This document shows, in pieces, positions 15,706-43,438 of a DNA stretch of 64,000 nt. Within the stretch, counting starts at the first letter, position 1. The number at the start of each line of letters is the position of its first letter. A program made the translations under genes and the position numbers. The stretch is from assembly GCA_011839185.1 (NCBI GenBank), contig GCA_011839185.1_3918.1; one strand, 5' to 3'. The notes under the pieces are model-generated. The model searched no databases. It was not told where the DNA came from and saw only the letters and a list, made by a program, of their open reading frames with translations. The DNA comes from a phage.

Positions 15706-15735
15706 TTGACAAGGGGCTTCAAAGCCCCTTAGAAT
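15706..15735 (+). promoter_or_regulatory. sigma70-like promoter overlapping a hairpin
   Basis: TTGACA, 17-nt spacer (AGGGGCTTCAAAGCCCC, itself an inverted repeat), then TAGAAT. Confidence 0.45.
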
Positions 15736-21026: not shown

Positions 21027-21094
21027 GAAACTCTGTAGAATATTCACAATAGACTAAGCCTTTCTTATCTGGTAAATTTTTCAGGTAAGGGGGG

Positions 21095-21280
21095 CTTTTT
21101 CATTTCAGGATTGTGCAGGTAGAGTTCTGTATAGAAATCTGTAGAGAAAATTTTGAACTCCAAAGGGAAAATTCATTTTCAAGCTGTGCAGGTAATCTCC
21201 AAAGAGCTTTTTCATTTTCAAAACGTGCAGACCCCGCTCAGGTCGGGCAAGAAAAATCATTTTAGAATCGTGCAGGTAGG
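21095..21280 (+). repeat. four direct repeats of about 25 bp (TTTTCATTTTCA-N4-GTGCAGGTA)
   Basis: copies at 21095-21122, 21168-21195, 21207-21233, 21251-21280; non-coding context upstream of the early-gene array. Confidence 0.6.
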
Positions 21281-21302
21281 TTTTTATAGAGAGTCAGACC
21301 AA

Positions 21303-21334
21303 CCCCTCTCCCCCTCTTACTCCCCCTCTCCCCA
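21303..21334 (+). repeat. CT-rich polypyrimidine tract
   Basis: CCCCTCTCCCCCTCTTACTCCCCCTCTCCCC. Confidence 0.6.
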
Positions 21335-21453
21335 AAAGTCAAGAGAAAAATTTGTAGTGGATTGAAAAATAATTCTTGATTTGTGTTTTGTTTTGTGGTA
21401 GTCGTGCGCGCCCGTTCATTTCCCAACCTTACAAAAATATTTAATAAAAACCG

Positions 21454-21482
21454 TTGACACGCCAAACAAGTTTACGTACTAT
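21454..21482 (+). promoter_or_regulatory. sigma70-like promoter
   Basis: TTGACA, 17-nt spacer, TACTAT; downstream GGAGAATC RBS before the ATG at 21532. Confidence 0.55.
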
Positions 21483-21531
21483 TTGCATCAGACGGGCAAG
21501 CTAGCCACTTCCTAAACTGGAGAATCTAAAA

Positions 21532-21723
21532 ATGGCATCAAGAAAAATCAAAGTCGGTGATGAGGTTAACGTTAAGTATGAGCACTCTCATAAAATGTTA
21601 ACTATTCGCTCTTACAAGGTTTATCAGGTGGAAGCTATCCACGAAGACGGTACATTTTCCCTAAAAGGACATAGCGAACGTTTCCCTGCTGAATTGTTCG
21701 AAAAATGGAGTACTAAAAAATGA
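21532..21723 (+). CDS. small early protein
   Basis: 63 aa; conserved AAACTGGAGA RBS context. Confidence 0.55.
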   Translation: MASRKIKVGDEVNVKYEHSHKMLTIRSYKVYQVEAIHEDGTFSLKGHSERFPAELFEKWSTKK

Positions 21724-21926
21724 TTTACAGCCGTGAATTGATGGTTACAACTAACGTTAACACAAAGGTAAAACGTTTTTACATGCAAATCTGTGGCGTA
21801 TGGTCCAGAATATCAGAAGCCGACTATTGCAACTATGTAGAAACGGCAATCAACTCGAATTGCTACCTTACAAGAAACACTAAGAATTTTACAAGGCAGA
21901 CAGCGATTTACTACTACGATAAATAA
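21720..21926 (+). CDS. small early protein
   Basis: 68 aa; start overlaps the upstream stop. Confidence 0.45.
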   Translation: MIYSRELMVTTNVNTKVKRFYMQICGVWSRISEADYCNYVETAINSNCYLTRNTKNFTRQTAIYYYDK

Positions 21927-21931
21927 AGTAC

Positions 21932-21967
21932 TTTACAAGGGGCTTATAGTTCGATAGAGTAAGCCCC
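21932..21967 (+). promoter_or_regulatory. type-I cassette: promoter embedded in a hairpin
   Basis: TTTACA, 17-nt spacer, TAGAGT; the spacer and -10 lie inside the inverted repeat GGGGCTTA...TAAGCCCC; followed by the conserved UTR CAGATAAAGAGCTTTAC...GGAGATTCTAAAATG. Confidence 0.5.
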
Positions 21968-22012
21968 AGATAAAGAGCTTTACTAACTAACCTTAAACTA
22001 GGAGATTCTAAA

Positions 22013-22393
22013 ATGGCTTATCGTGCACCGAAATTCATCAACAAAGACAACTTTCGCAACGTACTGGAGAAGGCACTTGATGAAAAATTTAAAGGTAACA
22101 TTATTATTGTTCACTCATTCAATTTTAAGTATGACATCAACGGGAATAAAATCAACCATTACACGGCAACAATGATAGACGGTACGTTATCAAGTGAAAA
22201 AGCCGTACTGAATGCACTTGCTGGACGTGGTAAAAACCTGATAAGCTGCAATAAGAGACGTTATCAAGGTGGCGCATATGGTTATGATGATGCTGTTTAC
22301 CATCTTGAAAATATGGGCTATTCAGTGGAGAAAGCTGGAGCGTCTCAAATAATTGGTAGTGATGGTTATGTGACAATATTCAAAATTAACTGA
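22013..22393 (+). CDS. small early protein
   Basis: 126 aa behind a type-I cassette. Confidence 0.55.
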   Translation: MAYRAPKFINKDNFRNVLEKALDEKFKGNIIIVHSFNFKYDINGNKINHYTATMIDGTLSSEKAVLNALAGRGKNLISCNKRRYQGGAYGYDDAVYHLENMGYSVEKAGASQIIGSDGYVTIFKIN

Positions 22394-22401
22394 TAAAGTA
22401 C

Positions 22402-22437
22402 TTTACAAGGGGCTTATAGTTCGATAAAGTAAGCCCC
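22402..22437 (+). promoter_or_regulatory. type-I cassette promoter/hairpin
   Basis: near-identical copy of the 21932 cassette (TTTACA, 17 nt, ATAAAG/TAAAGT). Confidence 0.5.
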
Positions 22438-22481
22438 AGATAAAGAGCTTTACCACTCAATCCTAAATTGGAGATTCTAAA

Positions 22482-22772
22482 ATGGCTATTATCAAAAACG
22501 TTGTAATTCCTGCAAAAACTCGTGATGACGCTCGCATCATGGCGAAAAAGTTAGGCGGGAAAGTGGTTGACAATGGAAAACAATCTGCTGTAAGATGGGG
22601 CGTAAAGGCTGATAAACAGTTGAAGCTAAAAAATTCACCGATAAACCTTTTTACATGTGTAAGCACTATCGGGAAGACAAATGTATACACGAAAAAGGCA
22701 TATATTAGACGCATAACCTTAACATCCCCCATTCGTACAATGAGAAGTTATGCAAAGCTGAAAATTAACTGA
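22482..22772 (+). CDS. small early protein
   Basis: 96 aa behind a type-I cassette. Confidence 0.5.
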   Translation: MAIIKNVVIPAKTRDDARIMAKKLGGKVVDNGKQSAVRWGVKADKQLKLKNSPINLFTCVSTIGKTNVYTKKAYIRRITLTSPIRTMRSYAKLKIN

Positions 22773-22780
22773 TAAAGTAC

Positions 22781-22816
22781 TTTACAGGGGGCTTAAAAGT
22801 TGATATCTTAAGCCCC
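22781..22816 (+). promoter_or_regulatory. type-I cassette promoter/hairpin
   Basis: TTTACA, 17 nt, TATCTT inside GGGGGCTTAAAAG...CTTAAGCCCC. Confidence 0.5.
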
Positions 22817-22860
22817 AGATAAAGAGCTTTACCACTAAATCCTAAACTGGAGATTCAAAA

Positions 22861-23157
22861 ATGAAACTATCAAATAAAGTCCGTGAAAATCTAAGCAAGT
22901 TACTTAATAAAATTGATTTCATTGAAACATCAAGGAATAGTCATGATGTTATGGAATGGTTACACGGAAAAATCAAAGGCCGTCGTGTAGTGATTTGCTT
23001 ATGGAATAGTTGCAGGGAGTATAAAAAACCTGTATTGCAAGTCAATATTTACGATGATACTTTTAAAAGCCCTGTAAAGTCTAAAAGCGATTTATTAGAA
23101 TCTTATGAGATAACTGTAAGTGGCAAAGTATCACGTAAAGAGGAAACACCATGTTAA
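22861..23157 (+). CDS. small early protein
   Basis: 98 aa behind a type-I cassette. Confidence 0.55.
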   Translation: MKLSNKVRENLSKLLNKIDFIETSRNSHDVMEWLHGKIKGRRVVICLWNSCREYKKPVLQVNIYDDTFKSPVKSKSDLLESYEITVSGKVSRKEETPC

Positions 23158-23483
23158 TGACTGGTATCACTGCAATCATTGCCATTTTCGCGCTATATAA
23201 GGCATATAAAGCCTATAATCTAGCAAATAAGGCAATCACACAGCAGGTTAGCAATAACCTTGTAGAAAGCTTTCTAGGACGTCTCAGTGATGAGCAAATA
23301 AAGCGGCTAGAGATGAGCTTCAGATATAAAGCCAAAACCTATCAGATAAGTGACATCTTCAAAGATGATTTTCAGTTAGTTGATGATTATAATTCTCTGA
23401 TAAATGCTTTAAACATCAGTGACTTGAAAGGCTATCATGCTGTAATTGTTCAAGAGTTGAGCAAACGAAAACAAAATTCTTGA
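23151..23483 (+). CDS. small membrane-anchored protein
   Basis: 110 aa; hydrophobic N-terminus; start overlaps the upstream stop. Confidence 0.45.
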   Translation: MLMTGITAIIAIFALYKAYKAYNLANKAITQQVSNNLVESFLGRLSDEQIKRLEMSFRYKAKTYQISDIFKDDFQLVDDYNSLINALNISDLKGYHAVIVQELSKRKQNS

Positions 23484-23538
23484 CACTGGTTTTTAGATAG
23501 ATTAAATTACACATCAACGGGGAGGGGATGACCTTCCC
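23479..23538 (+). promoter_or_regulatory. type-II cassette: promoter plus 5'-UTR hairpin
   Basis: TTGACA, 17 nt, TAAATT, then hairpin GGGGAGGGGATGACCTTCCCC and the conserved RBS GGAGAATCTAAAATG. Confidence 0.55.
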
Positions 23539-23571
23539 CACTAAATAAAGTCCTAAACTGGAGAATCTAAA

Positions 23572-23844
23572 ATGTATGCTACTAACAATGGTCGCACTTT
23601 AAATGTCACACTACGTCACTATGTAGATGGTGTCATGCACTTTGAAGATTTACAAGCTGAGCAACATATCTTAGATTGGCAAGTCGCAGGACTCCAAAAA
23701 ACTGCTACGGGATACGGTAAAAAGATTCCAACCAGTTGGAAAGTACACTACGAAGGACGTTTGCGCAGAATTTATCAGGATGTGCAAAGCAATAGTGCAT
23801 CGAGTTACATTATAGTAAAAGGTAAAAAACTGCATTTAGTGTAA
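23572..23844 (+). CDS. small early protein
   Basis: 90 aa behind a type-II cassette. Confidence 0.55.
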   Translation: MYATNNGRTLNVTLRHYVDGVMHFEDLQAEQHILDWQVAGLQKTATGYGKKIPTSWKVHYEGRLRRIYQDVQSNSASSYIIVKGKKLHLV

Positions 23845-23849
23845 AGTAC

Positions 23850-23885
23850 TTTACAGGGGGTTATCAAGCTGATAAGATAGCCCCA
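23850..23885 (+). promoter_or_regulatory. type-I cassette promoter/hairpin
   Basis: TTTACA, 17 nt, TAAGAT inside GGGGGTTATC...GATAGCCCC. Confidence 0.5.
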
Positions 23886-23928
23886 GATAAAGAGCTTTAC
23901 CACTCAATCCTAAATTGGAGATTCTAAA

Positions 23929-24333
23929 ATGACTATTAATAACCGTGAATTATCAATCTTAAAAGCACGTTTGACCGTCAACCGGATTAATGTTCTGACA
24001 TCATCAGCGCCTGATGAAACATTGCACAACATTATCGGAAAGATTCAAAGCGTTATTTTAGACGTTGAAAACGTAAAAAGCTCATTGGCTGACGTTGCAG
24101 CAGGTATCACGCTAGACGGTGCGCAATATGAAATGGCTGACATGTTAGGCAAATCGAAGGTAATGAATAAAGAGCTTGATTTAAAAATGTTTCGATTTGC
24201 CGTGAAAGTATGGCTATCCGTCGAGTATGACGCTAATTTTGCAATCGCTGATTTCTTCGCCACTTGGTTACAACGTAATTTGGCAAATCATGACTTTCGT
24301 GACATCTGCGACGCAATTTATGCAGAACTCTAA
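23929..24333 (+). CDS. small early protein
   Basis: 134 aa behind a type-I cassette. Confidence 0.55.
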   Translation: MTINNRELSILKARLTVNRINVLTSSAPDETLHNIIGKIQSVILDVENVKSSLADVAAGITLDGAQYEMADMLGKSKVMNKELDLKMFRFAVKVWLSVEYDANFAIADFFATWLQRNLANHDFRDICDAIYAEL

Positions 24334-24341
24334 AAATTTTA

Positions 24342-24401
24342 TTGACACTGGTTTTTAGATAGATTAAATTACACATCAACGGGGAGGGAATGACCTTCCC
24401 C
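24342..24401 (+). promoter_or_regulatory. type-II cassette: promoter plus 5'-UTR hairpin
   Basis: TTGACA (24342-24347), 17 nt, TAAATT (24365-24370), hairpin GGGGAGGGAATGACCTTCCCC (24381-24401). Confidence 0.55.
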
Positions 24402-24433
24402 ACTAAATAAAGTCCTAAACTGGAGAATCTAAA

Positions 24434-24637
24434 ATGGCTATTATTAACGGCTTACACATTGAAACAACTCACATCAAAGATATTAAAGTTGGTGATGTAG
24501 TCCTTTCCCACGGCGTAGAGAAAACTGTCACTGCAAAGGATATCAAAGAGGACTCTTTCATGGGTAGGACTCTCTTCGGTGATTCTTATTGCTTAGGTTA
24601 TCTTGCAGTTTTAAAAGTTGTCAAAAATAACAAATAA
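24434..24637 (+). CDS. small early protein
   Basis: 67 aa behind a type-II cassette. Confidence 0.5.
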   Translation: MAIINGLHIETTHIKDIKVGDVVLSHGVEKTVTAKDIKEDSFMGRTLFGDSYCLGYLAVLKVVKNNK

Positions 24638-24642
24638 AGTAC

Positions 24643-24680
24643 TTTACAGGGGGCTTGGAAGTTGATATCTTAAGCCCCAG
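24643..24680 (+). promoter_or_regulatory. type-I cassette promoter/hairpin
   Basis: TTTACA then GGGGGCTTGGAAGTTGATATCTTAAGCCCC. Confidence 0.45.
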
Positions 24681-24724
24681 ATAAAGAGCTTTATCACTCA
24701 ATCCTTAAACTAGGAGATTCAAAA

Positions 24725-25267
24725 ATGAAATGCTATCACGGAACTACTCAAGAAAATTTCCTCAACCTGATTAATAACGGTGATAAACCATCAGGCGCAT
24801 GGAATTGTTCGGATATGGACGGCAATTTTTACGTGTATCCAGAAAATAAAATCTATGGCGACGATGAGGAAGAGATAACATCAGAAGGCATCCAGCAAGC
24901 TCTAGGCAATGCCACTATCACCGCAGCTTTTCAGATGAAGACTCAAAATATTGTTATCTTAGAACTCGATATTCCAGAGGATGAGCTGAATGACGATTAT
25001 TCTTGTGATAATATGTCGAGTGTAGCAAGTTTTACAGAGTACTTTGATGTAAATTGGATTAAAAAGGTCTATACAACAGAGTTTAACGCTATGTATTCAC
25101 CTTTTTGTCTTCCTTCATTGGATAACCCAAATTTAAACTATCTTGATGAGTCTCTGGAGCTTCTTGCTAAAAGTGTCCAACAGTCGGACAGTATTCAGGT
25201 TTTTTGTGACATCATGGATACACTGACAGGGAACATTGCAGAAGAGGATTTAAAGAGCTTTTTCTAA
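24725..25267 (+). CDS. hypothetical acidic protein
   Basis: 180 aa behind a type-I cassette. Confidence 0.55.
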   Translation: MKCYHGTTQENFLNLINNGDKPSGAWNCSDMDGNFYVYPENKIYGDDEEEITSEGIQQALGNATITAAFQMKTQNIVILELDIPEDELNDDYSCDNMSSVASFTEYFDVNWIKKVYTTEFNAMYSPFCLPSLDNPNLNYLDESLELLAKSVQQSDSIQVFCDIMDTLTGNIAEEDLKSFF

Positions 25268-25300
25268 AAACCTATGCAATCACCTTATAAACACTAATTA

Positions 25301-25320
25301 GCCCCTTGTAGGGGCTTTTA
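25301..25320 (+). terminator. terminator-like hairpin
   Basis: GCCCC-TTGTA-GGGGC followed by TTTTA. Confidence 0.5.
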
Positions 25321-25333
25321 GAGGACTTAAATC

Positions 25334-25567
25334 ATGCTTACAACCATTTATCTCATCCTTTCCATTTGTAACGGCCATTCATGCGATTTTAAAGGGCTTG
25401 AGGAGTTCACAGGAAGTAAAGAAAATGCCATTCAAGTTTGTCAGATAGCAAGGCAAGACTATCCCGCCAGTGATGACATACAATGCTACTTTAAGACAGA
25501 AGATGAAGAAGGCATTTATTTTGATAGTGTTGACGGTCAATATGAAATTATCATTGAAAAAGACTAG
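25334..25567 (+). CDS. small protein with N-terminal hydrophobic segment
   Basis: ORF track 77 aa. Confidence 0.45.
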   Translation: MLTTIYLILSICNGHSCDFKGLEEFTGSKENAIQVCQIARQDYPASDDIQCYFKTEDEEGIYFDSVDGQYEIIIEKD

Positions 25568-25603
25568 ACAAGCCTGATAAAAGCTTGTAGAGTGTCAATC
25601 AAC

Positions 25604-25624
25604 GGGGAGGGAATAACCTTCCCC
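25604..25624 (+). promoter_or_regulatory. type-II cassette 5'-UTR hairpin
   Basis: GGGGAGGGAATAACCTTCCCC followed by the conserved RBS context. Confidence 0.45.
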
Positions 25625-25658
25625 ACTAAATAAAGTCCTTAAACTAGGAGATTCTAAA

Positions 25659-25907
25659 ATGTATACTAAAACGCAACTTAAAAGCATGGTTAACAATGGT
25701 TTAATGGATGAAGTCTACAAAGAATGTAGACGCTATGGAAAAATCATGGATAAGTCTAGTTATGAGTATACTCACACAATAGATTTCAAAACTAATGAAA
25801 AACGAACTGACTTTATCACTGTGATAGTTATTGAATATAAATGCTTACTGTGGACTTTTGAGCTAGTAAAGGGTGAGTGTATAGAAATCGAATACAAAGA
25901 CGCTTAA
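25659..25907 (+). CDS. small early protein
   Basis: 82 aa behind a type-II hairpin. Confidence 0.5.
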   Translation: MYTKTQLKSMVNNGLMDEVYKECRRYGKIMDKSSYEYTHTIDFKTNEKRTDFITVIVIEYKCLLWTFELVKGECIEIEYKDA

Positions 25908-25913
25908 AAGTAC

Positions 25914-25950
25914 TTTACAGGGGGCTTAAAAGTTGGTATCTTAAGCCCCA
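25914..25950 (+). promoter_or_regulatory. type-I cassette promoter/hairpin
   Basis: TTTACA then GGGGGCTTAAAAGTTGGTATCTTAAGCCCC. Confidence 0.45.
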
Positions 25951-25993
25951 GATAAAGAGCTTTACCACTAAATCCTAAACTGGAGATTCAAAA

Positions 25994-26335
25994 ATGGCTT
26001 ATGTAACTGTAATTACCGATAAAGAGAATTCATCTTGGTCAACTCAGGTTAGTGATAAGATGTCACCTATGCAGTGCCTAAAATACTTTGAGCAGTGGAA
26101 CAAAGGCGAGGATGTAAGCCCCTTTCAGGTAATGCAAATCATCCATACAGATAACGAAGGGAATAAAACGACACTGAATAGTGAGTACTATGCAAGCCGT
26201 TTTGAAACGAGAAGTAAAACAATGAAGCTTTTACGTGAATCCGGCTATTCTCACATTGCCGCGCTAATATGGGATGACCTGCTGAAAAGCCAGCGTATCA
26301 GCTATGTAAAACCTGAAAAAATATTCATCAGTTAA
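25994..26335 (+). CDS. small early protein
   Basis: 113 aa behind a type-I cassette. Confidence 0.55.
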   Translation: MAYVTVITDKENSSWSTQVSDKMSPMQCLKYFEQWNKGEDVSPFQVMQIIHTDNEGNKTTLNSEYYASRFETRSKTMKLLRESGYSHIAALIWDDLLKSQRISYVKPEKIFIS

Positions 26336-26535
26336 TCAATAACTTATAAAAAACTTTAAAAAATTACTTGACGATACCCCTTGACAATAGTACATTTGTT
26401 CGAGGGGGTTTATCTAAAAGGGATTCACTTAAAAGATTCTTTATAGATAAACTTAAAAAATTGCTTGCAATCATCTTCCAAAAACTTTATAGTTTATCTC
26501 AAGCAATAATGCTTTCCTAAACTGGAGATTCAAAA

Positions 26536-27066
26536 ATGAACAAGTTCAAAGCTATCAACTACATTCGCTCAAATAGTGTCATGTCTAAGCCTGTTAAGGA
26601 TACCTACGAATTTCGTTGCAATGGCGAACACTTTGCTACCATCACCAAATCAAACAACGGGGCTTATTATATCCATCGTCGTAATGTTTCTACGGTTGTA
26701 GTTTCTAACTTTATGCAAGCTGTAGCGGAACTCCTCCCACTCTTCTTAGAAAAGTATGCCGTACAGTGTGAAAGTGTTCGTGAATGCACTAAAACAGTGT
26801 TAAACGGTTATCGTATGGCTTATGAGCGCTCTTTAAAGAATCTCAATAAATACTACAAAGCACCGGAAGGTACTTCATCCACAGCCTACGGGGTAGGGGG
26901 CTTCAATGTCAGCCTTTACGAAGTGGAAGAAATCGAGCTTTATGACCATCGCCCAAATGGTTACGCTAAGACACTGGGAGATGGGTTAATGCTGAATATC
27001 AAGAACTTAGAAAAAACTTTAAGAGAAATTGAAAAAGATATTGACGAGACAATCAAAAGTCTGTAA
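26536..27066 (+). CDS. hypothetical protein
   Basis: 176 aa; conserved GGAGATTCAAAAATG RBS context; promoter-like TTGAC/TTGCTT words upstream. Confidence 0.55.
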   Translation: MNKFKAINYIRSNSVMSKPVKDTYEFRCNGEHFATITKSNNGAYYIHRRNVSTVVVSNFMQAVAELLPLFLEKYAVQCESVRECTKTVLNGYRMAYERSLKNLNKYYKAPEGTSSTAYGVGGFNVSLYEVEEIELYDHRPNGYAKTLGDGLMLNIKNLEKTLREIEKDIDETIKSL

Positions 27067-27079
27067 ATTATCAATCAAC

Positions 27080-27100
27080 GGGGAGGGAATAACCTTCCCC
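27080..27100 (+). promoter_or_regulatory. type-II cassette 5'-UTR hairpin
   Basis: GGGGAGGGAATAACCTTCCCC. Confidence 0.45.
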
Positions 27101-27131
27101 ACTAAGTAAAGTCCTAAACTGGAGATTCAAA

Positions 27132-27395
27132 ATGGAACACGTAGAACTGACCACACTCTTACAAATCGCAACCGACAAGGAAGACGTAGCATTATTTCAC
27201 CGTATCGAAAGTGATTTGTTCAATGGTGAAATCATCAAAGAATCTTACGAAGTTGTCGGATTCAAAGATGGTAAAGCATTTGGCTTTTTTGACCTCGACA
27301 AAAGCAAAGCGGTTACAAAGTACGATGTTCTATCTTGTGAGATTCTTACAAAATACAACGAAAAAAGGCTTGCAACATACGCCAACATGCAGTAA
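27132..27395 (+). CDS. small early protein
   Basis: 87 aa behind a type-II hairpin. Confidence 0.5.
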   Translation: MEHVELTTLLQIATDKEDVALFHRIESDLFNGEIIKESYEVVGFKDGKAFGFFDLDKSKAVTKYDVLSCEILTKYNEKRLATYANMQ

Positions 27396-27408
27396 ATTAC
27401 TAATCAAC

Positions 27409-27427
27409 GGGGAGGGATGACCTCCCT
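27409..27427 (+). promoter_or_regulatory. type-II cassette 5'-UTR hairpin (variant)
   Basis: GGGGAGGGATGACCTCCCT. Confidence 0.4.
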
Positions 27428-27459
27428 ACTAAATAAAACCTTAAACTAGGAGATTCAAA

Positions 27460-27708
27460 ATGGCTACTATCCGCGCAACTGTTAACGAATTCGGCTTTTG
27501 CTCTCTGGATGTTAAATTTGACCTTGTAGGTACTGATAACGCCTTTGAGATGGTGAAAGGTCTTATCAGTCAAACCATCAAAGACTATAACCCTTCTGAT
27601 GAGTTCTGGAAAGAAACAAAACAGGAAGTTCTCAAAGATGGTTATTCTTATCACTATTGGGGTGAAAAAATTGTCTCCCTATACTACGACAAAGAGGGCA
27701 CTAACTAA
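27460..27708 (+). CDS. small early protein
   Basis: 82 aa; last gene of the + strand block. Confidence 0.5.
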   Translation: MATIRATVNEFGFCSLDVKFDLVGTDNAFEMVKGLISQTIKDYNPSDEFWKETKQEVLKDGYSYHYWGEKIVSLYYDKEGTN

Positions 27709-28482
27709 TCGACGCAACGGGGCTAAATAGCCCCAGATACCTTAAAAGCTCCTTCTCATAGGGGCTTTTTTACGTCTATAAAGAATCCTTTCCCTTTCCT
27801 TTCCAGAATCTACCCCACTGATTCGATAGAGTCTATCTCATACCTTAAAAAGCAATAACTCTATAGTCTATTCTATAGCCCCTTATCAAATCAACTTAAA
27901 TAAAAGCCAATAACCCCAGAAAGGGGATGGCCCATTTAAACGCTCTATAAAGCTCTATAACAGCCTTATCAACCTAACTTAAGGGATTGCATTAACCCAC
28001 TCTAAAAAGCCCTTTATAAAGCTTCCTATAGCCTTAAAAGAATCTTATAAGGTGTAAGCTTTATCATCTCGTTAGTTTCTTGTGAATATCTAAAAAGGGC
28101 TTGTTAGTGTCTTAAAAGTATGTTATAGGGGCTTAAAAGTAGCTTAAAAGCTATGTGAAAGAGGCTATAAAGTTACGTAAATGCTAGCCCCCTTAACATT
28201 TTCTTAACAATTTCTTAACAAACCCTACATAGTTATGCTTGTTAGAGACTTGTTAGCCCCTTGTTAAATCTCTGTTAAAACCACGTAAAAGGCTTGTAAG
28301 AACCTTTGGCATAGCCTTAAAAGCTCCTGTAAAGCCCTATAAAGAGCTATCCATACAGTTGAGGGGTAAATACTAGGAAGAGGCTTAAAAGAGCTTACAA
28401 GGAGCTATAGAGAGCTTTTAAGAGGCATGTTTAAGGAATCACTAAGAAAGGAAAGGGAACGATAAGGAAGAGATAGTGACCA

Positions 28483-28757
28483 TGTTAATAGCTTGTTAAA
28501 AAGATTAAACACTTGTTAGAAACTTGTTAATTATCTTAACAAAATAACCCTTTAAAATTAACTTGTTAGCTCTTGTTAGTCATCTGTTAAGATTCTGTAA
28601 AGCCTATTCAGCACTTGTTAGAAAACTGTTACAGTCTTGTTAGTTCTGTTAAGAATCTGTTAAGACCTTTGAAGAGTTGTTAAGAAGATGTAAGGACTGT
28701 TAAGAGATTGTTAAGGATATTTTAAAATTTTGCAAAGTACTTGTAAGGGAGTTGTTA
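28483..28757 (+). repeat. helically phased array of at least 16 TGTTA(A/G) words
   Basis: TGTTA at 28483, 28494, 28514, 28524, 28564, 28574, 28585, 28615, 28627, 28638, 28648, 28658, 28678, 28698, 28709, 28753; spacings are multiples of 10-11 bp. Confidence 0.65.
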
Positions 28758-29317
28758 AGGGCTACCAAGCAGATATACATCTTCTACAGATATTTTTCAG
28801 TTCCTTCAAAGACCCTAAAAAATGACTTGATAGTCCTATTTTATAAAAATTTTAAAATTCTGAATAATTACCTATACAGTCTTTTAAAAATACAGGTAGA
28901 AACAGGCTTATAAGATACCTTGTTAGTACCGTGTTAGACCTTGTGAGATAAGGTCTGTAAAGATATTACTGTTAAGTTTGTTAAAACAGTCTATATAGAG
29001 GCTTAGTATTTCCTAGTGAACATCTATAGAGAGTCACATAGCTGACATAGAGATTAAGAGGTGTATAGGAGCTTCTAAGAAGGTGTAGAGAGATGGTTAA
29101 GGTGATTGTATAGGTTGTTAAGAAGGCTTGTTAGAGGGCTTGTTAGAAGGGTTATACAGAGGGGCTATTAAGACCACTAGATAGTTACTAAGATACTATA
29201 TAGTACTATATAACTATATAGAGAGTAAGATTAAGAAGGTTGTTAAGAAGGGTAGATATTTTATTCACATATGATGGTGACCCAGAGGTTGGGACAACCG
29301 ATAAATTTTATAAAAAT

Positions 29318-39011: not shown

Positions 39012-39088
39012 CTCTGTTTAGCTCAGCTTGGTAGAGCGTTCCGTTTGGGGCGGTAAGGCCGGAGGTTCAAGTCCTCCAACAGAGACCA
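39012..39088 (+). tRNA. tRNA-Pro (anticodon TGG)
   Basis: manual cloverleaf: acceptor CTCTGTT/AACAGAG, D-arm GCTCAGCTTGGTAGAGC, T-arm GGAGGTTCAAGTCCTCC, encoded CCA. Confidence 0.8.
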
Positions 39089-39095
39089 AATTAAT

Positions 39096-39173
39096 GTTCC
39101 AGTGGACAAAATGGTAAAGTCACCACTCTTTCAAAGTGGATATTTGAGGGTTCAAATCCCTTCTGGAACGCCA
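39096..39173 (+). tRNA. tRNA-Glu (anticodon TTC)
   Basis: acceptor GTTCCAG/CTGGAAC, anticodon arm CCACT-CTTTCAA-AGTGG, T-loop TTCAAAT, encoded CCA. Confidence 0.75.
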
Positions 39174-39180
39174 GTTTTGA

Positions 39181-39253
39181 CAGAAGACCAATTACAGCAA
39201 ACTTAATCTTATTCATCTGAAGGTAAATCGGACAAAGAAGAGATTTGGTCTGG
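39181..39253 (+). ncRNA. candidate structured element A (hairpin with conserved bulged closing stem)
   Basis: 5' CAGAAGACCAAT ... ATTTGGTCTGG 3'; AT-rich ~48-nt interior; one of four related elements. Confidence 0.35.
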
Positions 39254-39264
39254 TCATTAAGAAT

Positions 39265-39341
39265 TGCGGGTATAGAGAAAGGGCGTCTCACATGTCTCAT
39301 TAGCATGGTATCGGCAGGTTCGACTCCTGCACCCGCCTCCA
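39265..39341 (+). tRNA. tRNA with CAT anticodon (Met or Ile2)
   Basis: acceptor TGCGGGT/ACCCGCC with 1-72 mismatch, anticodon arm CATGT-CTCATTA-GCATG, T-arm GCAGGTTCGACTCCTGC, encoded CCA. Confidence 0.65.
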
Positions 39342-39347
39342 AATTTA

Positions 39348-39411
39348 CAGAAGACCGTTTACAGCAATATTTATTAAATTTTTAGCGGAAAAATTGAAAG
39401 ATACGGTCTGG
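39348..39411 (+). ncRNA. candidate structured element B
   Basis: 5' CAGAAGACCGTTTACAGCAA ... ACGGTCTGG 3'. Confidence 0.35.
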
Positions 39412-39424
39412 TAATACTAAACAT

Positions 39425-39501
39425 GGTTAGGAAGCACATAAGGTATGTGCGGTCGCCTGTTAAGCGAATGGCACAGGGTTCGAATCCCTGACTAACCGCC
39501 A
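39425..39501 (+). tRNA. tRNA-Asn (anticodon GTT)
   Basis: acceptor GGTTAGG/ACTAACC, D-arm GCACATAAGGTATGTGC, loop CTGTTAA, T-arm CAGGGTTCGAATCCCTG, encoded CCA. Confidence 0.75.
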
Positions 39502-39570
39502 AATTTAGGAGAGAAGCGATTGCTCACCGATTTGTAAGGTGCAAGTCCTTAGCCTGAATAGAAATCAAAT

Positions 39571-39658
39571 GTGTCGTTATCCCGTAGATGGTAGCGGTGG
39601 GGACTGTAAATCCCTTGTCATTGAGACTCGGTAGGTTCGACTCCTACACGGCACACCA
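39571..39658 (+). tRNA. tRNA-Tyr (anticodon GTA), long variable arm
   Basis: 88 nt; acceptor GTGTCGT/ACGGCAC, loop CTGTAAA, T-arm GTAGGTTCGACTCCTAC, encoded CCA. Confidence 0.75.
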
Positions 39659-39663
39659 ATAAA

Positions 39664-39741
39664 GGTTATGTAGTTTAATTTGGTTAAAATACTCCCCTGT
39701 CACGGGAGATGATGAGGGTTCAAATCCCTTCGTAACCGCCA
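39664..39741 (+). tRNA. tRNA-Asp (anticodon GTC)
   Basis: acceptor GGTTATG/CGTAACC, arm CTCCC-CTGTCAC-GGGAG, T-arm GAGGGTTCAAATCCCTT, encoded CCA. Confidence 0.8.
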
Positions 39742-39769
39742 ATTTTGAGAGGGCTATTTAGCCCCTCCC

Positions 39770-39797
39770 TTAAAGGGTTCTTACGAGTATCCTTTAA
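39770..39797 (+). promoter_or_regulatory. conserved hairpin with GTTCTTACGAG loop (copy 1 of 4)
   Basis: TTAAAGG-GTTCTTACGAGTAT-CCTTTAA. Confidence 0.4.
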
Positions 39798-39802
39798 AGG
39801 AG

Positions 39803-39876
39803 CAGAAGACCAAATACAGCAAGTTACTTAAAATTTCAAGCCAATTTAATTTTGAAAAATTTAAAACTTGGTCTGG
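39803..39876 (+). ncRNA. candidate structured element C
   Basis: 5' CAGAAGACCAAATACAGCAA ... CTTGGTCTGG 3'. Confidence 0.35.
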
Positions 39877-39889
39877 CTCAACAAATTTA

Positions 39890-40020
39890 CAGAAGACCGT
39901 TTACAGCAAAACTTAAACAATCTATTTCTCGGTAAAGAAAAGGCGAAGGTTCGATTCCTTCACTCGGCAGATGTCGAGTTGGTGTAATGGTAGCACTTAA
40001 GATGATAAACAACGGTCTGG
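39890..40020 (+). ncRNA. candidate structured ncRNA D: closing stem as A-C, enclosing a permuted tRNA-like module
   Basis: CAGAAGACCGTT ... AACGGTCTGG; inside in order: T-arm GAAGGTTCGATTCCTTC, 7-bp acceptor-like hairpin ACTCGGC-AGAT-GTCGAGT, D-arm GTGTAATGGTAGCAC. Confidence 0.45.
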
Positions 40021-40021
40021 T

Positions 40022-40165
40022 AATTATCTTTGTAGATAAGTTATTAAGCTTACCTGTGAGTATGCGACCACAAAGGGTGAAAGGGTAAATTCTAGATTTA
40101 AACCTAAAAAGGCACATCGCTACAGACCTTAAGCAAGTCTGGGTAGCTTATCTACAAAGATAATT
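40022..40165 (+). repeat. long inverted repeat (19-bp perfect arms) enclosing about 106 nt
   Basis: AATTATCTTTGTAGATAAG (40022-40040) and its exact reverse complement (40147-40165). Confidence 0.6.
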
Positions 40166-40169
40166 TAAT

Positions 40170-40245
40170 GGAAGTGTAGCAGAATGGTGATGCGGCAGAC
40201 TTTTAATCTGACAGGCGATGGGTTCGAATCCCTCCACTTCTACCA
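40170..40245 (+). tRNA. tRNA-Lys (anticodon TTT)
   Basis: acceptor GGAAGTG/CACTTCT, loop CTTTTAA, T-loop TTCGAAT, encoded CCA; T-stem imperfect in my parse. Confidence 0.65.
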
Positions 40246-40323
40246 AATTCACCCTTAACTGAGAAACACCTGCGCGGCTGGAAACACCCACTCAACAGTT
40301 TCTCTAACTAGGGTACTTATTCT

Positions 40324-40400
40324 GGTTCAGTCGCAGATAAGGTAATGCAAGGGTCTCATAAGCCCTATGAATGTGGGTTCGATTCCCATCTGAACCTCCA
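40324..40400 (+). tRNA. tRNA with CAT anticodon (Met, fMet or Ile2)
   Basis: acceptor GGTTCAG/CTGAACC, anticodon stem with three G-C pairs (AGGGT/GCCCT), loop CTCATAA, T-arm GTGGGTTCGATTCCCAT, encoded CCA. Confidence 0.7.
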
Positions 40401-40416
40401 ATTCGTTGGTGATATT

Positions 40417-40902
40417 ATGTTTTGTGCTAATAAAGATTGTGACAACAAAGCCGTTAAAGGTGGAAAGTATTGTTCACGCTCTTGTGCTGCAAGGGTAAAC
40501 AACAAGAGTCATCCAAAAAGAAGACAAGAAGGCTCTTGTCATTCATGTGGAAAGCAGACACCAAAATCAAGAAAGTATTGTGATGAATGTATTTCAAATG
40601 GTATTCTGAAACAATACAAAAACCCCGATGAAGAAAAGAAAGCGAAGTCACAACACGTTAAAAAGTCTCGTGACAAACTTAAGAGGGTTTTAGTTGATTA
40701 CAAAGGTGGTTGTTGCTCAATTTGTGGATACAATAAGTGCATAAAGGCTTTAGAGTTTCACCACTTAGACCCTAATACAAAGGACTTCACAGTAGGACAA
40801 AAACACTTCTCTATAGAGGTAATGAAGTCTGAAGTTGATAAGTGTGTATTACTGTGTGCAAATTGCCACAGAGAGGTACACGAAGGGGTAACAAAGCTGT
40901 GA
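40417..40902 (+). CDS. HNH homing-endonuclease-like protein with N-terminal zinc ribbons (start trimmed past the tRNA)
   Basis: C-terminal EFHHLDP...LLCANCHREVH HNH motif; several CxxC pairs; ORF-track start 40345 lies inside the tRNA. Confidence 0.65.
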   Translation: MFCANKDCDNKAVKGGKYCSRSCAARVNNKSHPKRRQEGSCHSCGKQTPKSRKYCDECISNGILKQYKNPDEEKKAKSQHVKKSRDKLKRVLVDYKGGCCSICGYNKCIKALEFHHLDPNTKDFTVGQKHFSIEVMKSEVDKCVLLCANCHREVHEGVTKL

Positions 40903-40971
40903 AAGCACATATGGATGTGCATTCGGCTGATAACCGAAAGGCAGAAGGTTCGAATCCTTCTCACAGTACCA
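40896..40971 (+). tRNA. tRNA-Ile (anticodon GAT)
   Basis: acceptor GCTGTGA/TCACAGT, D-arm GCACATATGGATGTGC, arm TTCGG-CTGATAA-CCGAA, T-arm GAAGGTTCGAATCCTTC, encoded CCA; first 7 nt overlap the HNH stop codon. Confidence 0.75.
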
Positions 40972-40986
40972 ATTTCAATAAAGTTG

Positions 40987-41015
40987 TTGACATTGAGATG
41001 TGACTACTTTATAGT
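40987..41015 (+). promoter_or_regulatory. sigma70-like promoter inside the tRNA array
   Basis: TTGACA, 17-nt spacer, TATAGT. Confidence 0.55.
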
Positions 41016-41182
41016 AACCTTAGTTTTCGTTGCGTAGCGTCTATTTTGCAAATTTAAAATAAATGCAAACGACAATGTTTTTCTGGCAGTAGCTTGATAG
41101 GCTAAACACCAGTGAGGTCTTCCAATCCCTCATCAAAGAATTTGGCGTACTCGCCCACGGTATGATTAATAAGGTGGGCATC

Positions 41183-41210
41183 TTTAAGGGCTTTCTAAGA
41201 GAGTCTTTAA
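41183..41210 (+). promoter_or_regulatory. conserved hairpin-motif variant (copy 2 of 4)
   Basis: GGCTTTCTAAGAGAGTCTTTAAAG, about 10 nt upstream of tRNA-Arg. Confidence 0.3.
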
Positions 41211-41218
41211 AGATTAAT

Positions 41219-41295
41219 GCACCCTTAGTTCAACTGGACAGAGCAAATGACTTCTAATCATTGAGTTACAGGTTCGAATCCTGTAGGGTGTGCCA
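41219..41295 (+). tRNA. tRNA-Arg (anticodon TCT)
   Basis: acceptor GCACCCT/AGGGTGT, arm AATGA-CTTCTAA-TCATT, T-arm ACAGGTTCGAATCCTGT, encoded CCA. Confidence 0.8.
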
Positions 41296-41437
41296 ATTAG
41301 TTAGCAGATTACTTAGACGACCTTATCGGGTCTCCGTGTAAGGAGGTGGTCTGTATCTCATGTTTTCCAGAACATGTAAATAATCTGAGAAGGGGCTTTA
41401 CAGTGTTGAGATAACAGGGTAAGCTTCGAATTATAGT

Positions 41438-41520
41438 ATGGGACGATGTTAAGACTCTAAGGCATGAGCAACGGCTTCCAACACCGTTTCAAAGGGGTTC
41501 AACTCCTCCGTCCCATGCCA
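41438..41520 (+). tRNA. atypical tRNA-like gene, anticodon CCA (Trp-type), about 7 extra nt between acceptor and D-arm
   Basis: 3' two-thirds parse canonically (arm ACGGC-TTCCAAC-ACCGT, T-loop TTCAACT, acceptor GTCCCAT, CCA) but the complementary 5' acceptor sits 7 nt too far upstream. Confidence 0.3.
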
Positions 41521-41533
41521 AAGTCTTATTAGG

Positions 41534-41621
41534 GGTAGGTAGCGGCTAATGGTAGCCAAACTGTCTTGAAAACAGTTGCCACTGTAGAGATACGGTGAGG
41601 GTTCGACTCCTTTACTTACCG
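41534..41621 (+). tRNA. tRNA-Ser (anticodon TGA), long variable arm
   Basis: 88 nt; acceptor GGTAGGT/ACTTACC, 3-bp D-stem, arm ACTGT-CTTGAAA-ACAGT, T-loop TTCGACT; no encoded CCA. Confidence 0.65.
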
Positions 41622-41843
41622 CCTAATAAGATTTAAAGCCAAGCTTCATTCGGATGTTGCTTTGGTATCCCTCGTGTATTGTCGTACACACTGATAAAGC
41701 ACCTAGTAGGTGTCACGGAGAAGAGATAATATCAAGCTCTCCAAAGGTTCTAGTCACCGGATTAAACAAGACTATGCAAAGACCTATTTAGGTCTTTTTA
41801 GAGGGCTTCTAAGGTTATTACAGCTTGTTGTGGAACCTTGTTG

Positions 41844-41868
41844 CTTAGGTTCTTAGAAGTTCTCTAAA
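41844..41868 (+). promoter_or_regulatory. conserved hairpin-motif variant (copy 3 of 4)
   Basis: TTAGGTTCTTAGAAGTTCTCTAA, about 10 nt upstream of a tRNA. Confidence 0.3.
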
Positions 41869-41878
41869 AAGATTTAAT

Positions 41879-41955
41879 GCACCTATAGCCCAACTGGTAG
41901 AGGCAGCAGACTTAGAATCTGCTCAGTGTGAGTTCGAATCTCTCTAGGTGTACCA
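41879..41955 (+). tRNA. tRNA with Leu anticodon TAG, class-I-length variable loop
   Basis: perfect anticodon stem GCAGA/TCTGC with loop CTTAGAA; Leu-like D-loop AACTGGTAGA; discriminator A; 5-nt variable loop. Confidence 0.6.
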
Positions 41956-41962
41956 AATTAAT

Positions 41963-42038
41963 GCAGGTGTAGCAAAATGGTTATGCGGCTGACTCTTAAT
42001 CAGTAAGACGATGGGTTCAATTCCCTCCACCTGTACCA
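41963..42038 (+). tRNA. tRNA-Lys (anticodon CTT)
   Basis: acceptor GCAGGTG/CACCTGT, loop CTCTTAA, T-loop TTCAATT, encoded CCA. Confidence 0.65.
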
Positions 42039-42044
42039 AACATT

Positions 42045-42120
42045 GGGGTCATAGTTTATATGGTTAAAATTCGAGTTTTGCAAACTTGGGAACTGAGTTC
42101 AATTCTCAGTGACTCCACCA
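42045..42120 (+). tRNA. tRNA-Ala (anticodon TGC)
   Basis: acceptor GGGGTCA/TGACTCC with G3-U70 wobble (Ala identity element), loop TTTGCAA, T-arm CTGAGTTCAATTCTCAG, encoded CCA. Confidence 0.8.
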
Positions 42121-42125
42121 ATTAG

Positions 42126-42201
42126 TGCATCCATAGTTTAAACGGGAAAATTACAGTCTTCCAAACTGAGGTTGAGGGTTCGATTCCCTCTGGATGCTCC
42201 A
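42126..42201 (+). tRNA. tRNA-Gly (anticodon TCC)
   Basis: acceptor GCATCCA/TGGATGC, loop CTTCCAA, T-arm GAGGGTTCGATTCCCTC, encoded CCA. Confidence 0.75.
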
Positions 42202-42208
42202 AATTAAT

Positions 42209-42284
42209 GCTCCTATCGTATAATTGGCTATTACGGTTGCCTTGTAAGCAACTTATCAGGGTTCGAATCCTTGTGGGAGCACCA
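42209..42284 (+). tRNA. tRNA-Thr (anticodon TGT)
   Basis: acceptor GCTCCTA/TGGGAGC, arm GTTGC-CTTGTAA-GCAAC, T-arm CAGGGTTCGAATCCTTG, encoded CCA. Confidence 0.8.
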
Positions 42285-42287
42285 ATT

Positions 42288-42376
42288 CAGAGGTCAAGTG
42301 AAAGACCGCTTTGAGTCAACTGAAGACCGTAACAAATTCCACGGAGTTGAGTTAGCGGCACAACTCCAGACCTCTT
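42288..42376 (+). ncRNA. candidate structured element E between tRNA-Thr and tRNA-Val
   Basis: 7-bp closing stem AGAGGTC/GACCTCT enclosing an internal hairpin GGAGTTG...CAACTCC and a GAAGACCG word shared with elements B and D. Confidence 0.3.
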
Positions 42377-42380
42377 TCAT

Positions 42381-42455: not shown

Positions 42456-42456
42456 T

Positions 42457-42534: not shown

Positions 42535-42539
42535 ATTTT

Positions 42540-43430: not shown

Positions 43431-43438
43431 AGATTTAA

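Follow-up and report, generated by a model that had tools for sequence, protein, structure and literature searches.

The ORFans in the hyperplastic regions of T4-like phages are preceded by promoter-early stem-loops (PeSLs), units that combine a sigma-70 promoter, a stem-loop, and a Shine-Dalgarno (SD) sequence (PMC2839356, PMC4122927). In phi1 and RB49, the stem-loop is mostly found between the -35 and -10 hexamers or over the -10 itself, and promoter as well as terminator activity was shown experimentally (PMC2839356). PeSL-to-PeSL recombination and mini-circles have also been reported in T4-like phages. An array of closely similar units is described here from a stretch of phage DNA of 64,000 nucleotides (contig GCA_011839185.1_3918.1 of NCBI GenBank assembly GCA_011839185.1; hereafter the window, numbered from its first letter), in which small open reading frames (ORFs) are preceded by near-identical cassettes of two families, type I and type II, each holding a predicted promoter, a hairpin, and an SD leader. 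These cassettes probably represent sigma-70 early promoters joined to RNA boundary hairpins and a shared SD leader, which would serve at the same time as homology for recombination and would constitute a PeSL-like system in the subfamily Ounavirinae.

From its similarity to database records, the window is assigned to a Felix O1/wV8-like myophage of the genus Felixounavirus, subfamily Ounavirinae. Positions 21500-28000 matched 257 phage records in a Megablast search, with 86-91% identity in pieces, and almost all of these records are Felixounavirus phages of Escherichia, Salmonella, Shigella, and Citrobacter (Felix O1, wV8, JLBYU28, Z31, and others). In wV8 and Felix O1, the homologous array is on the same strand and follows rIIA, rIIB, and a macro-domain 'phosphatase' gene. 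The repeats have been on record since these two genomes were sequenced, and the cassettes described below would explain them. The Felix O1 paper lists a 57-bp direct repeat, CTTTACATGGGGCTTAAAAGTCTGTAAAGTAAGCCCCAGATAAAGAGCTTTACCACT, which is type I, and a 39-bp repeat, TTGACACTGGTTTTTAGATAGATTAAATTACACATCAAC, which is type II; it gives these repeats no function, omits them from its promoter list, and reports that early promoters were not found and that temporal control was not understood (PMC3185647). The wV8 GenBank record carries the same repeats as DR_1 to DR_9, and the 14-nt leader appears as a repeat_region in the record of phage Mordin. No paper linking PeSLs to Felix O1-like phages was found in the literature searched; an earlier description in the phiEa21-4 genome paper (Lehman 2009) is possible, and the RefSeq record of phiEa21-4 shows no promoters annotated in this region.

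Judged on the letters, the array has all the sequence-level features of PeSLs. Each unit extends from the stop codon of the upstream gene to the SD sequence and start codon of the next; both types have sigma-70-like hexamers at canonical spacing and a stable stem-loop within or beside the promoter; the units are concentrated before small genes of unknown function in a hyperplastic region; and the indel and replacement junctions between close relatives fall inside the repeats. The differences lie elsewhere. The lineage in which PeSLs were described is that of the T4-like myoviruses, whereas the present cassettes occur in Ounavirinae, a difference that concerns where such elements are on record and not how they function. 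With its two additional outer helices, type I holds the entire promoter and ~15 nt of leader in a 20-bp hairpin with nearly invariant arms, and the type II hairpin is located downstream of the predicted start, in the 5' untranslated region (UTR). A U-tract is missing here, making a terminator role doubtful.

The array is a genuine and functionally coherent feature, far from random. Its design is already known from the T4-like PeSLs, and what is added is a well-supported new example rather than a new kind of system. It would extend the PeSL principle, that of portable stop-promoter-hairpin-RBS (ribosome-binding site) units which express and shuffle accessory genes, to an unrelated myovirus subfamily, suggesting that such a design may be a general solution for phage accessory-gene arrays. 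It would also provide the first explicit map of likely early promoters for the Felix O1 group, which is in wide use for Salmonella and E. coli typing and for biocontrol, and would make available a clean set of natural covariation data on an element read both as a DNA promoter and as an RNA hairpin.

Two cassette families in the array

The region from 21.45 to 27.46 kb holds six type I and five type II cassettes, one decayed type II cassette, and two other predicted promoters, giving about 14 promoter-like sites for 16 small ORFs of the + strand (Table 1). The type I 5' motif AAGTACTTTACARGGGG occurs without mismatch at 21926, 22396, 22775, 23844, 24637, and 25908 (n = 6); with up to three mismatches allowed, eight matches were obtained against 0.44 expected by chance, and the 19-mer CCCCAGATAAAGAGCTTTA occurs six times against 0.00 expected. 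The type II motif ATCAACGGGGAGGG is found at 23513, 24375, 25598, 27074, and 27403 (n = 5, with 0.13 expected), and the shared SD leader CCTAAACTGGAGATTC nine times in the region. A covariance-model search returned exactly six type I copies in the 64-kb window, and a repeat search gave coordinates in agreement with those of the original prediction, a model's reading of the same DNA that had proposed two families of near-identical cassettes before small ORFs. That proposal is borne out by motif counts far above chance and by the covariance model, as is its number of six type I copies, and the alignment of all copies, a check it had suggested, agreed with its coordinates as well and yielded mean column identities of 83% for type I and 79% for type II.

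Two of its details had to be revised. It had counted two full and three hairpin-only copies of type II; five copies are indeed present, but all five have -35 and -10 hexamers in register at a 17-nt spacer. The inverted repeat that it noted in type I is likewise present, but the arms GGGGCTTA and TAAGCCCC are the inner helix alone of a hairpin of ~59 nt and 20 bp, the outer helices of which were absent from that account.

Every cassette ends in GGAG plus ATG, and in five of the six window copies the type I hairpin opens with the upstream stop codon TAA. At the position orthologous to the decayed cassette 21454-21534, both Z31 and wV8 possess an intact type II cassette, and most relatives have a type II cassette in place of the two sites at 26368 and 26465. 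Shigella phage SflM_004 carries a decayed type I unit, ATTAAAGTGCTCTACATGTGGCCCGGG...CAAAGAGCTTTACC, upstream of its homologue of the 113-aa gene, an indication that single units are open to decay.

Exactly two forms of the SD leader occur, and they are never mixed: CCT-AAAYT-GGAG (193 distinct contexts) and CCTT-AAAYT-AGGAG (121), of which window positions 22461-22473 and 25636-25650 are examples. Both forms contain a mini-hairpin (UCC/GGA or UCCU/AGGA) sequestering the Shine-Dalgarno sequence, and the leader of the Erwinia phages reads CCTT-AYAA-AGGA. The two forms could be a matter of translational tuning or merely two linked haplotypes.

Table 1. Coordinates of the cassettes, the gene array, and the terminator-like hairpins of the window
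Feature	Position	Strand	Elements	Gene or context	Fold, score, or basis
Strong upstream terminator	21056-21097		T-run	Precedes array	Terminator scan
Array of 16 small protein-coding genes (63-180 aa)	21532..27708	+			ORF list; third-position-biased divergence in all 16
Decayed type II cassette	21454..21534	+	TTGACA (21454)-17-TACTAT (21477-21482), remnant hairpin, shared SD leader	ATG of 63-aa ORF	
Type I cassette 1	21924..22015	+	Hairpin 21924-21983, TTTACA 21932, TAGAGT ending 21960, leader, SD	ATG of 126-aa ORF	-24.5 kcal/mol, z -3.4; covariance model 83.8 bits
Type I cassette 2	22394..22484	+	Hairpin 22394-22453, TTTACA 22402, TAAAGT ending 22430	96-aa ORF	z -3.66
Type I cassette 3	22773..22863	+	Hairpin 22773-22832, TTTACA 22781, TG-extended TATCTT ending 22809	98-aa ORF	
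Type II cassette 1	23480..23574	+	TTGACA 23480, TAAATT 23503-23508, hairpin 23519-23539, SD	ATG of 90-aa ORF	-19.3 kcal/mol, z -3.0
Type I cassette 4 (59-nt variant)	23842..23931	+	Inner stem GGGGGTTATC/GATAGCCCC, TTTACA 23850, TAAGAT ending 23878	134-aa ORF	
Type II cassette 2	24342..24436	+	TTGACA 24342, TAAATT 24365-24370, hairpin 24381-24401	67-aa ORF	
Type I cassette 5	24635..24727	+	Hairpin 24635-24694, TTTACA 24643, TATCTT ending 24671	180-aa ORF	
Terminator-like hairpin	25300-25316		Hairpin + TTTT	3' of 180-aa ORF, then 77-aa ORF without own cassette	
Type II cassette 3	25565..25661	+	TAGACA 25565, TAGAGT 25588-25593, hairpin 25604-25624	82-aa ORF	'Hairpin-only' in the original prediction
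Type I cassette 6	25906..25996	+	Hairpin 25906-25965, TTTACA 25914, TATCTT ending 25942	113-aa ORF	
Two further sigma-70-like sites and shared SD leader	26368..26538	+	TTGACG-17-TACATT 26368, TTGCAA-17-TATAGT 26465	176-aa ORF	
Type II cassette 4	27041..27134	+	TTGACG 27041 (within end of upstream ORF), TAAATT 27064-27069, hairpin 27080-27100	87-aa ORF	
Type II cassette 5	27370..27462	+	TTGCAA 27370, TAAATT 27393-27398, hairpin ~27409-27427	82-aa ORF	
Downstream terminator-like hairpin	~27745-27775		Hairpin + T6		Read by eye; missing from terminator scan list

Conservation of the promoter elements

A collection of type I cassettes drawn from 43 IMG/VR stretches (contigs of ~54-94 kb) and from GenBank relatives comprised 192 copies with 68 distinct cores. 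TTTACA is kept in all 68, and TAnnnT follows at exactly 17 nt in 61 of them, in the form of 12 different hexamers; the remaining cores are six length variants with TAnnnT at an 18-nt spacer and one reading TAAAGC. In the alignment of 97 distinct type I sequences, T32 and A33 are invariant and T37 is present in at least 90% of the copies, with the three bases in between varying freely. All three positions are situated within the hairpin loop, where RNA structure sets no constraint, so that their fixation conforms to a sigma-70 pattern and not to that of an RNA loop. A TGn motif precedes the -10 in four of the six type I copies of the window.

For type II, 127 distinct contexts were extracted, about 120 of them genuine and a handful being chance matches. 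The genuine contexts display a TTGACA-like hexamer, a 17-nt spacer, and a hexamer resembling TAAATT, TAAAGT, or TAGTAT, after which ...ATCAAC leads to the hairpin, and both hexamers stay in register across several unrelated spacer families. In type I, the -35 and the T, A, and T of the -10 are held at 17 nt in ~100 distinct copies from three genera, and the proposal that the cassettes drive the small ORFs as sigma-70-type promoters with strong ribosome-binding sites is supported. When the usual 7 nt after the -10 is assumed, type I transcription is predicted to start at the A of CCCC/AGATAAAG, inside the 3' arm of the hairpin, and that of type II at about TCAAC/GGGG, 2-4 nt before the GGGG (GGGGAGGG).

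A reading of GTACTTTA as a T4 MotA box was rejected; a MotA box is placed about 12 nt from the -10, and the distance here amounts to 19 nt. Between rIIA and rIIB, at 15706-15735, a further site consists of TTGACA-18-TAGAAT with GGGGCTT-CAA-AGCCCC in its spacer and gives a weak match to the type I covariance model, so that a hairpin within a promoter is not confined to the array.

The hairpins and the strand that folds

The type I hairpin of ~59 nt is composed of three segments of 6, 5, and 9 bp (20 bp in total), interrupted by an A/A mismatch and a 3x3 internal loop. Both hexamers, -35 and -10, are contained in it, together with the stop codon of the upstream gene and the first ~15 bases predicted to be transcribed. 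The inner stem of 9 bp, closed by an 11-nt loop, covers the spacer and the last bases of the -10. The leader AGATAAAGAGCTTTA makes up the 3' arm and is paired with the 5' arm TAAAGTACTTTA, in which the upstream stop codon and the CTTTA of the -35 are contained; this pairing accounts for the strong conservation of the leader. Predicted RNA folding energies of type I range from -24 to -26 kcal/mol (z -2.7 to -3.7), and those of type II from -16 to -19 kcal/mol (z -2.5 to -3.3). In all five type II copies of the window the hairpin begins 10 nt after the -10, predicting a 5' tail of 2-4 nt.

Across the 97 distinct type I copies, 96.0% of the cells pair, a figure that drops to 31-57% once the 3' partners are displaced by 1-3 columns, and the covariation score of 0.106, against 0.066 in shuffles, was reached by none of 500 shuffles. 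Compensatory exchanges include a G-C to U-A swap of pair 5/55 in 13 sequences, a GC to UA change of pair 18/43 in the Erwinia phage copies, and T-A/A-T swaps at inner-stem levels 7 and 8 in 14 and 12 of the 68 cores, with level 9 showing four pair types. The inner-stem swaps were counted from the helix ends in order to avoid a gap artefact, given that in both the MAFFT and the covariance-model alignments the 59-nt variant has its 1-nt gap within the 3' arm and column-based counts consequently understate the pairing at the three innermost pairs. All 49 distinct type II hairpins fold. The cassette was recovered from 288 phage records, including those of Mooglevirus and Kolesnikvirus, in which the sequence has diverged and the structure and TTTACA-17-TAnnnT are kept. 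Nine type I copies are present in Citrobacter phage Mordin (Mooglevirus), and the Erwinia phage phiEa104 (Kolesnikvirus) shows the same architecture with GGTG...CACC replacing GGGG...CCCC, TTTACA-17-TAGTAT or TAATCT being retained.

The non-Watson-Crick cells of type I consist of 172 G.T(U) against 28 A.C, an asymmetry to which some five positions of the alignment contribute, including one that is almost invariant, and which hence reflects few independent events. Pairing stands at 96.0% with the + strand folded and at 88.5% with the - strand folded, and the commonest type II hairpin reaches -13.7 kcal/mol in the sense and -10.3 kcal/mol in the antisense orientation, a difference of 3.4. That G.U is tolerated and A.C hardly so is expected of pairing in + strand RNA and not of a palindrome or operator in duplex DNA, and it is concluded from this pattern that the hairpins would act in + strand RNA. 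In its predicted fold, the transcript made from a type I cassette itself has an almost unstructured leader.

No U-tract follows any of the 11 cassette hairpins, the 3' flanks being AGATAAAG for type I and ACTAAATAAAG for type II, and a terminator scan for the canonical intrinsic form (GC-rich stem and U-tract) lists none of the 11. A search of the 20-30 kb interval against Rfam at a permissive threshold returned nothing relevant.

Exchange of gene modules between relatives

The gene maps of the window and nine relatives differ by single ORFs that are present or absent along with one cassette, a shuffling of modules that did not feature in the original prediction. Counted over every locus of 6 kb or more, 160 of the 195 ends of BLAST homology fall inside cassettes, which cover 21% of the region, as do 29 of the 48 distinct homology-end sites (binomial p = 3e-9), the commonest breakpoint sites being cassette starts and the ATG; almost all intergenic DNA here is cassette, however, and selection against gene disruption would produce the same junction sites, so that location alone is no proof that the repeats cause the exchanges. 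Of the 257 records, only 2 span 80% or more of this 6.5 kb at a single place, whereas in controls of equal length that coverage is attained by 211 of 278 records (adjacent rII region) and by 251 of 299 (a structural-gene region).

Individual genes illustrate the exchange of one cassette type for the other. The 126-aa gene is preceded by type I in the window, JLBYU28, Z31, and SflM_004 and by type II in wV8, UAB_Phi87, and DE17; before the 113-aa gene, the window and wV8 carry type I, and six others carry type II. JLBYU28 lacks the 82-aa ORF and one type I unit, and its type II unit orthologous to 25565-25661 runs at the SD/ATG directly into the 113-aa gene. Felix O1 has the unit orthologous to 24342-24436 fused to the 113-aa gene, with four ORFs missing, and wV8 lacks two ORFs and one type I unit before the 126-aa gene. 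The 5' part of a cassette moves with the upstream gene and the SD variant with the downstream gene, as expected if crossovers fall inside the unit.

Beyond the last gene, at 27715-27740, the sequence CAACGGGGCTAAATAGCCCCAGATACC joins a type II 5' flank to a type I 3' flank, with no gene behind it and the terminal hairpin next; it is possibly a recombination relic.

A proposed composite cassette and its alternatives

The region is most readily understood as a hyperplastic early-gene array in which each intergenic unit would be a composite regulatory cassette of the PeSL kind, supplying in order the upstream stop codon, a host sigma-70 promoter, a + strand RNA hairpin, and the shared strong SD leader CCTAAACTGGAGATTCnAAAATG. 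The promoter would be TTTACA-17-TAnnnT in type I, often with an extended TGn and with a GC-rich discriminator, and TTGACA-like-17-TAAATT-like in type II. Because the predicted type I start is inside the 3' arm, the full type I hairpin would form only in transcripts reading through from the upstream gene, where it most likely both marks and protects the upstream message at its 3' end, be it as a processing site of the RNase III type, a 3' stabiliser, or a weak attenuator, and the cassette's own transcript would begin with an unstructured leader. The type II hairpin, 2-4 nt from the predicted 5' end, may be a terminal stem-loop protecting the mRNA from 5'-end-dependent decay. The same ~60-95 nt, present in a dozen copies of direct orientation, would offer homology for recombination, by which ORF-plus-cassette modules may be added, deleted, and re-ordered between related phages.

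Several observations speak against this explanation. A generic promoter scan is not enriched (60 found against 45 +/- 7 in shuffles, in AT-rich DNA), and the promoter call consequently depends on comparative conservation between genomes. No transcriptome and no mapped transcription start, 3' end, or processing site was found for any Felixounavirus in the literature searched, and every RNA-level step is therefore inferred. An assignment of temporal classes by cassette type was tried and rejected, the timing by reverse-transcription polymerase chain reaction (RT-PCR) in Felix O1 failing to separate type I from type II genes, and the missing U-tracts differ from the terminator role reported for PeSL stem-loops. 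The small number of events behind the wobble asymmetry and the near-confinement of intergenic DNA to the cassettes, both given above, count on the same side.

The possibility that the hairpins are true terminators or insulators, as for PeSLs, so that each gene forms a separate transcription unit with read-through blocked, deserves consideration and is nonetheless judged unlikely. The phi1 PeSL stem-loop cut lacZ expression as strongly as rrnB T1 (PMC2839356), the present hairpins occupy precisely the gaps between genes and have an inner stem with a GC-rich base, and the depositors of wV8 annotated 'terminators' at two of them, albeit on the opposite strand. Against this, the bases following the type I and type II hairpins offer no U-tract, whereas the recognisable terminators of the region, at 21056-21097, 25300-25316, and ~27745-27775, all have T-runs, and efficient termination at a type II hairpin, which is downstream of its own promoter, would abort its own transcript. 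The contrast with these three terminators is the reason for which a 3'-end or processing role is favoured and that of an efficient terminator ranked lower.

It is improbable that type I comprises RNA processing or stability hairpins only, contained in a long T7-like early transcript from 21454 and the type II promoters. The size and shape of type I resemble those of the T7 early RNase III sites, with a lower stem of 11 bp including a mismatch, a 3x3 internal loop, and an upper stem of 9 bp, and the conservation of TTTACA could be explained by its pairing with TAAAG in helix 2. Such a role does not account for the loop bases T32, A33, and T37 being conserved exactly 17 nt from TTTACA amid 12 hexamer variants, for the length variants that keep TAnnnT at an 18-nt spacer, for the extended -10 TG in four of six copies, or for the Erwinia phage copies, which keep TTTACA-17-TAGTAT or TAATCT within another stem sequence.

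The original prediction had suggested that a promoter placed in a hairpin could be sensitive to DNA structure or to a hairpin-binding protein. Control at the level of DNA, by a supercoil-driven cruciform or by an operator at which a dimeric phage or host protein shuts off type I, would suit a palindrome that runs from the -35 to about +15, where a repressor would be well placed, and outer GGGG/CCCC and TAAAG/CTTTA arms held at fixed distances; a GC-rich discriminator moreover suggests promoters sensitive to supercoiling or to guanosine tetraphosphate (ppGpp). This reading fares poorly and is rated very improbable. The 172 G.T against 28 A.C mismatches in the arms would be meaningless in duplex DNA and fit + strand RNA instead; the inner stems vary within one genome (GGGGCTTAT, GGGGTTATC, GGTGTTTATAC) with complementarity kept, so that one protein would need to recognise several half-sites; cruciform extrusion is disfavoured by a 9-bp stem that carries an 11-nt loop; and the type II hairpins are not palindromes around the promoter.

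That the cassettes are sites of a dedicated recombination system (folded sites of the integron attC kind or homing targets) instead of passive homology is scarcely credible, for despite the modules of ORF plus imperfect hairpin with conserved outer arms and variable centre, the PeSL mini-circles detected in T4-type phages, and the several homing endonucleases of the Felix O1 lineage (PMC8300805), no recombinase is evident among the 16 array ORFs (no Pfam match above cut-off), the junctions are spread over the cassette (start, middle, SD/ATG) with no single point, and the type II cassettes, without the long hairpin, participate equally. Equally far-fetched is the bolder form in which the type I unit is a folded-strand recombination site like attC or the PeSL mini-circle junctions; were it true, the Ounavirinae early region would be an integron-like array, and modules of ORF plus hairpin would leave it as circles and integrate anew, each bringing along a promoter and a ribosome site of its own.

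Other hairpin elements compared

Setting dedicated recombination aside and returning to the PeSL-like cassette, parts of it can be compared with other elements. The early RNase III sites of T7 (R0.3-R1.3) are interrupted intergenic hairpins of ~20 bp between small early genes transcribed by the host RNA polymerase, and RNase III cleavage there leaves a 3' hairpin that stabilises the upstream mRNA. Type I is likewise intergenic and similarly divided into lower stem, loop, and upper stem; the T7 sites are without promoters, however, no sequence similarity was found between the two, and cleavage in the present case is purely hypothetical. Emory, Bouvet and Belasco reportedly found in 1992 that a 5'-terminal stem-loop in the ompA 5' UTR stabilises its mRNA. 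The type II hairpin resembles it in being close to the predicted 5' end and in being followed by an unstructured AU-rich leader and the SD; it differs in that it would also be internal in read-through transcripts and in that the 5' end is a predicted one.

The early promoters of phage N4 are DNA hairpins with stems of 5-7 bp and 3-nt loops, which are read by the virion RNA polymerase. A promoter overlapping an inverted repeat is common to both, but the type I inner stem with its 11-nt loop and its canonical -35 and -10 departs from the N4 hairpin-promoter form. Felix O1 encodes no RNA polymerase (PMC3185647). Set beside integron attC, type I shows an imperfect palindrome with conserved arms; however, no recombinase is evident in the array and the junctions do not coincide at one point.

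The small genes and their expression

Directly behind the cassettes are 11 ORFs of 67-180 aa, out of the total of 16 in the region. The description of the ORFs as 63-180 aa long and without recognisable domains holds for the length of all 16 and, with some qualification, for the domains, as the search against Pfam gave no match above the curated cut-off for any of the 16 and two weak sub-threshold hits. All 16 belong to PHROGs of unknown function. Differences between the ORFs and their orthologues number 723, 468, and 2501 at codon positions 1, 2, and 3, respectively, with the third-position bias seen in all 16, so that they are real genes under purifying selection. Transcripts of the homologues were detected in Felix O1 by RT-PCR, and their peak came at 5 min for ORFs 16, 20, 21, and 22 and at 25 min for ORFs 17, 19, and 23 (PMC3185647, Table 3). 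From their context, a part in host takeover or anti-defence is plausible, and as well-delimited and, on the present reading, individually promoted small genes, the 16 are candidates for the corresponding screens.

A PDB sequence search with the 180-aa and 176-aa proteins gave no match. The 180-aa ORF (24725-25267) starts with MKCYHGTT, and homologues of its product occur only on contigs of Felixounavirus size. The AlphaFold model built from 19 homologues is poor (predicted local distance difference test, pLDDT, 56), and a Foldseek search of this model against the PDB produced no match with E below 0.1. Among its non-significant top hits are ADP-ribosyltransferase toxins (Rhs TreTu/TreX, pertussis S1), and the likeness of this model to ADP-ribosyltransferases is only a lead.

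The 110-aa ORF (23151-23483) overlaps the preceding 98-aa ORF at ATGTTAATGA, has a hydrophobic N-terminus, MLMTGITAIIAIFALY, and is without a cassette of its own; its layout suggests that it is probably a translationally coupled small membrane protein.

Neighbouring sequence

The downstream hairpin with T6 occupies the position of Felix O1 terminator t23 (PMC3185647, Table 2), and the site homologous to 25300-25316 is annotated as a terminator in wV8. Upstream of the array, a non-coding gap at 21100-21450, located 3' of the strong terminator, contains four TTTCA...GTGCAG(G)TA repeats and, at ~21300-21335, the C-rich run CCCCTCTCCCCCTCTTACTCCCCCTCTCCCC.

On the other side, 3' of the array, a 1.5-kb non-coding stretch (27775-29300) contains more than 25 direct copies of (C)TTGTTA(A/G) or CTGTTAAG. 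The GenBank records of JLBYU28 and Z31 start or stop just past the homologous stretch, which may for this reason hold a genome terminus or terminal repeat, or else an origin with iterons. Further along, 26 tRNA genes are clustered on the + strand at 39012-44791, a cluster likewise present in Felix O1, with 22.

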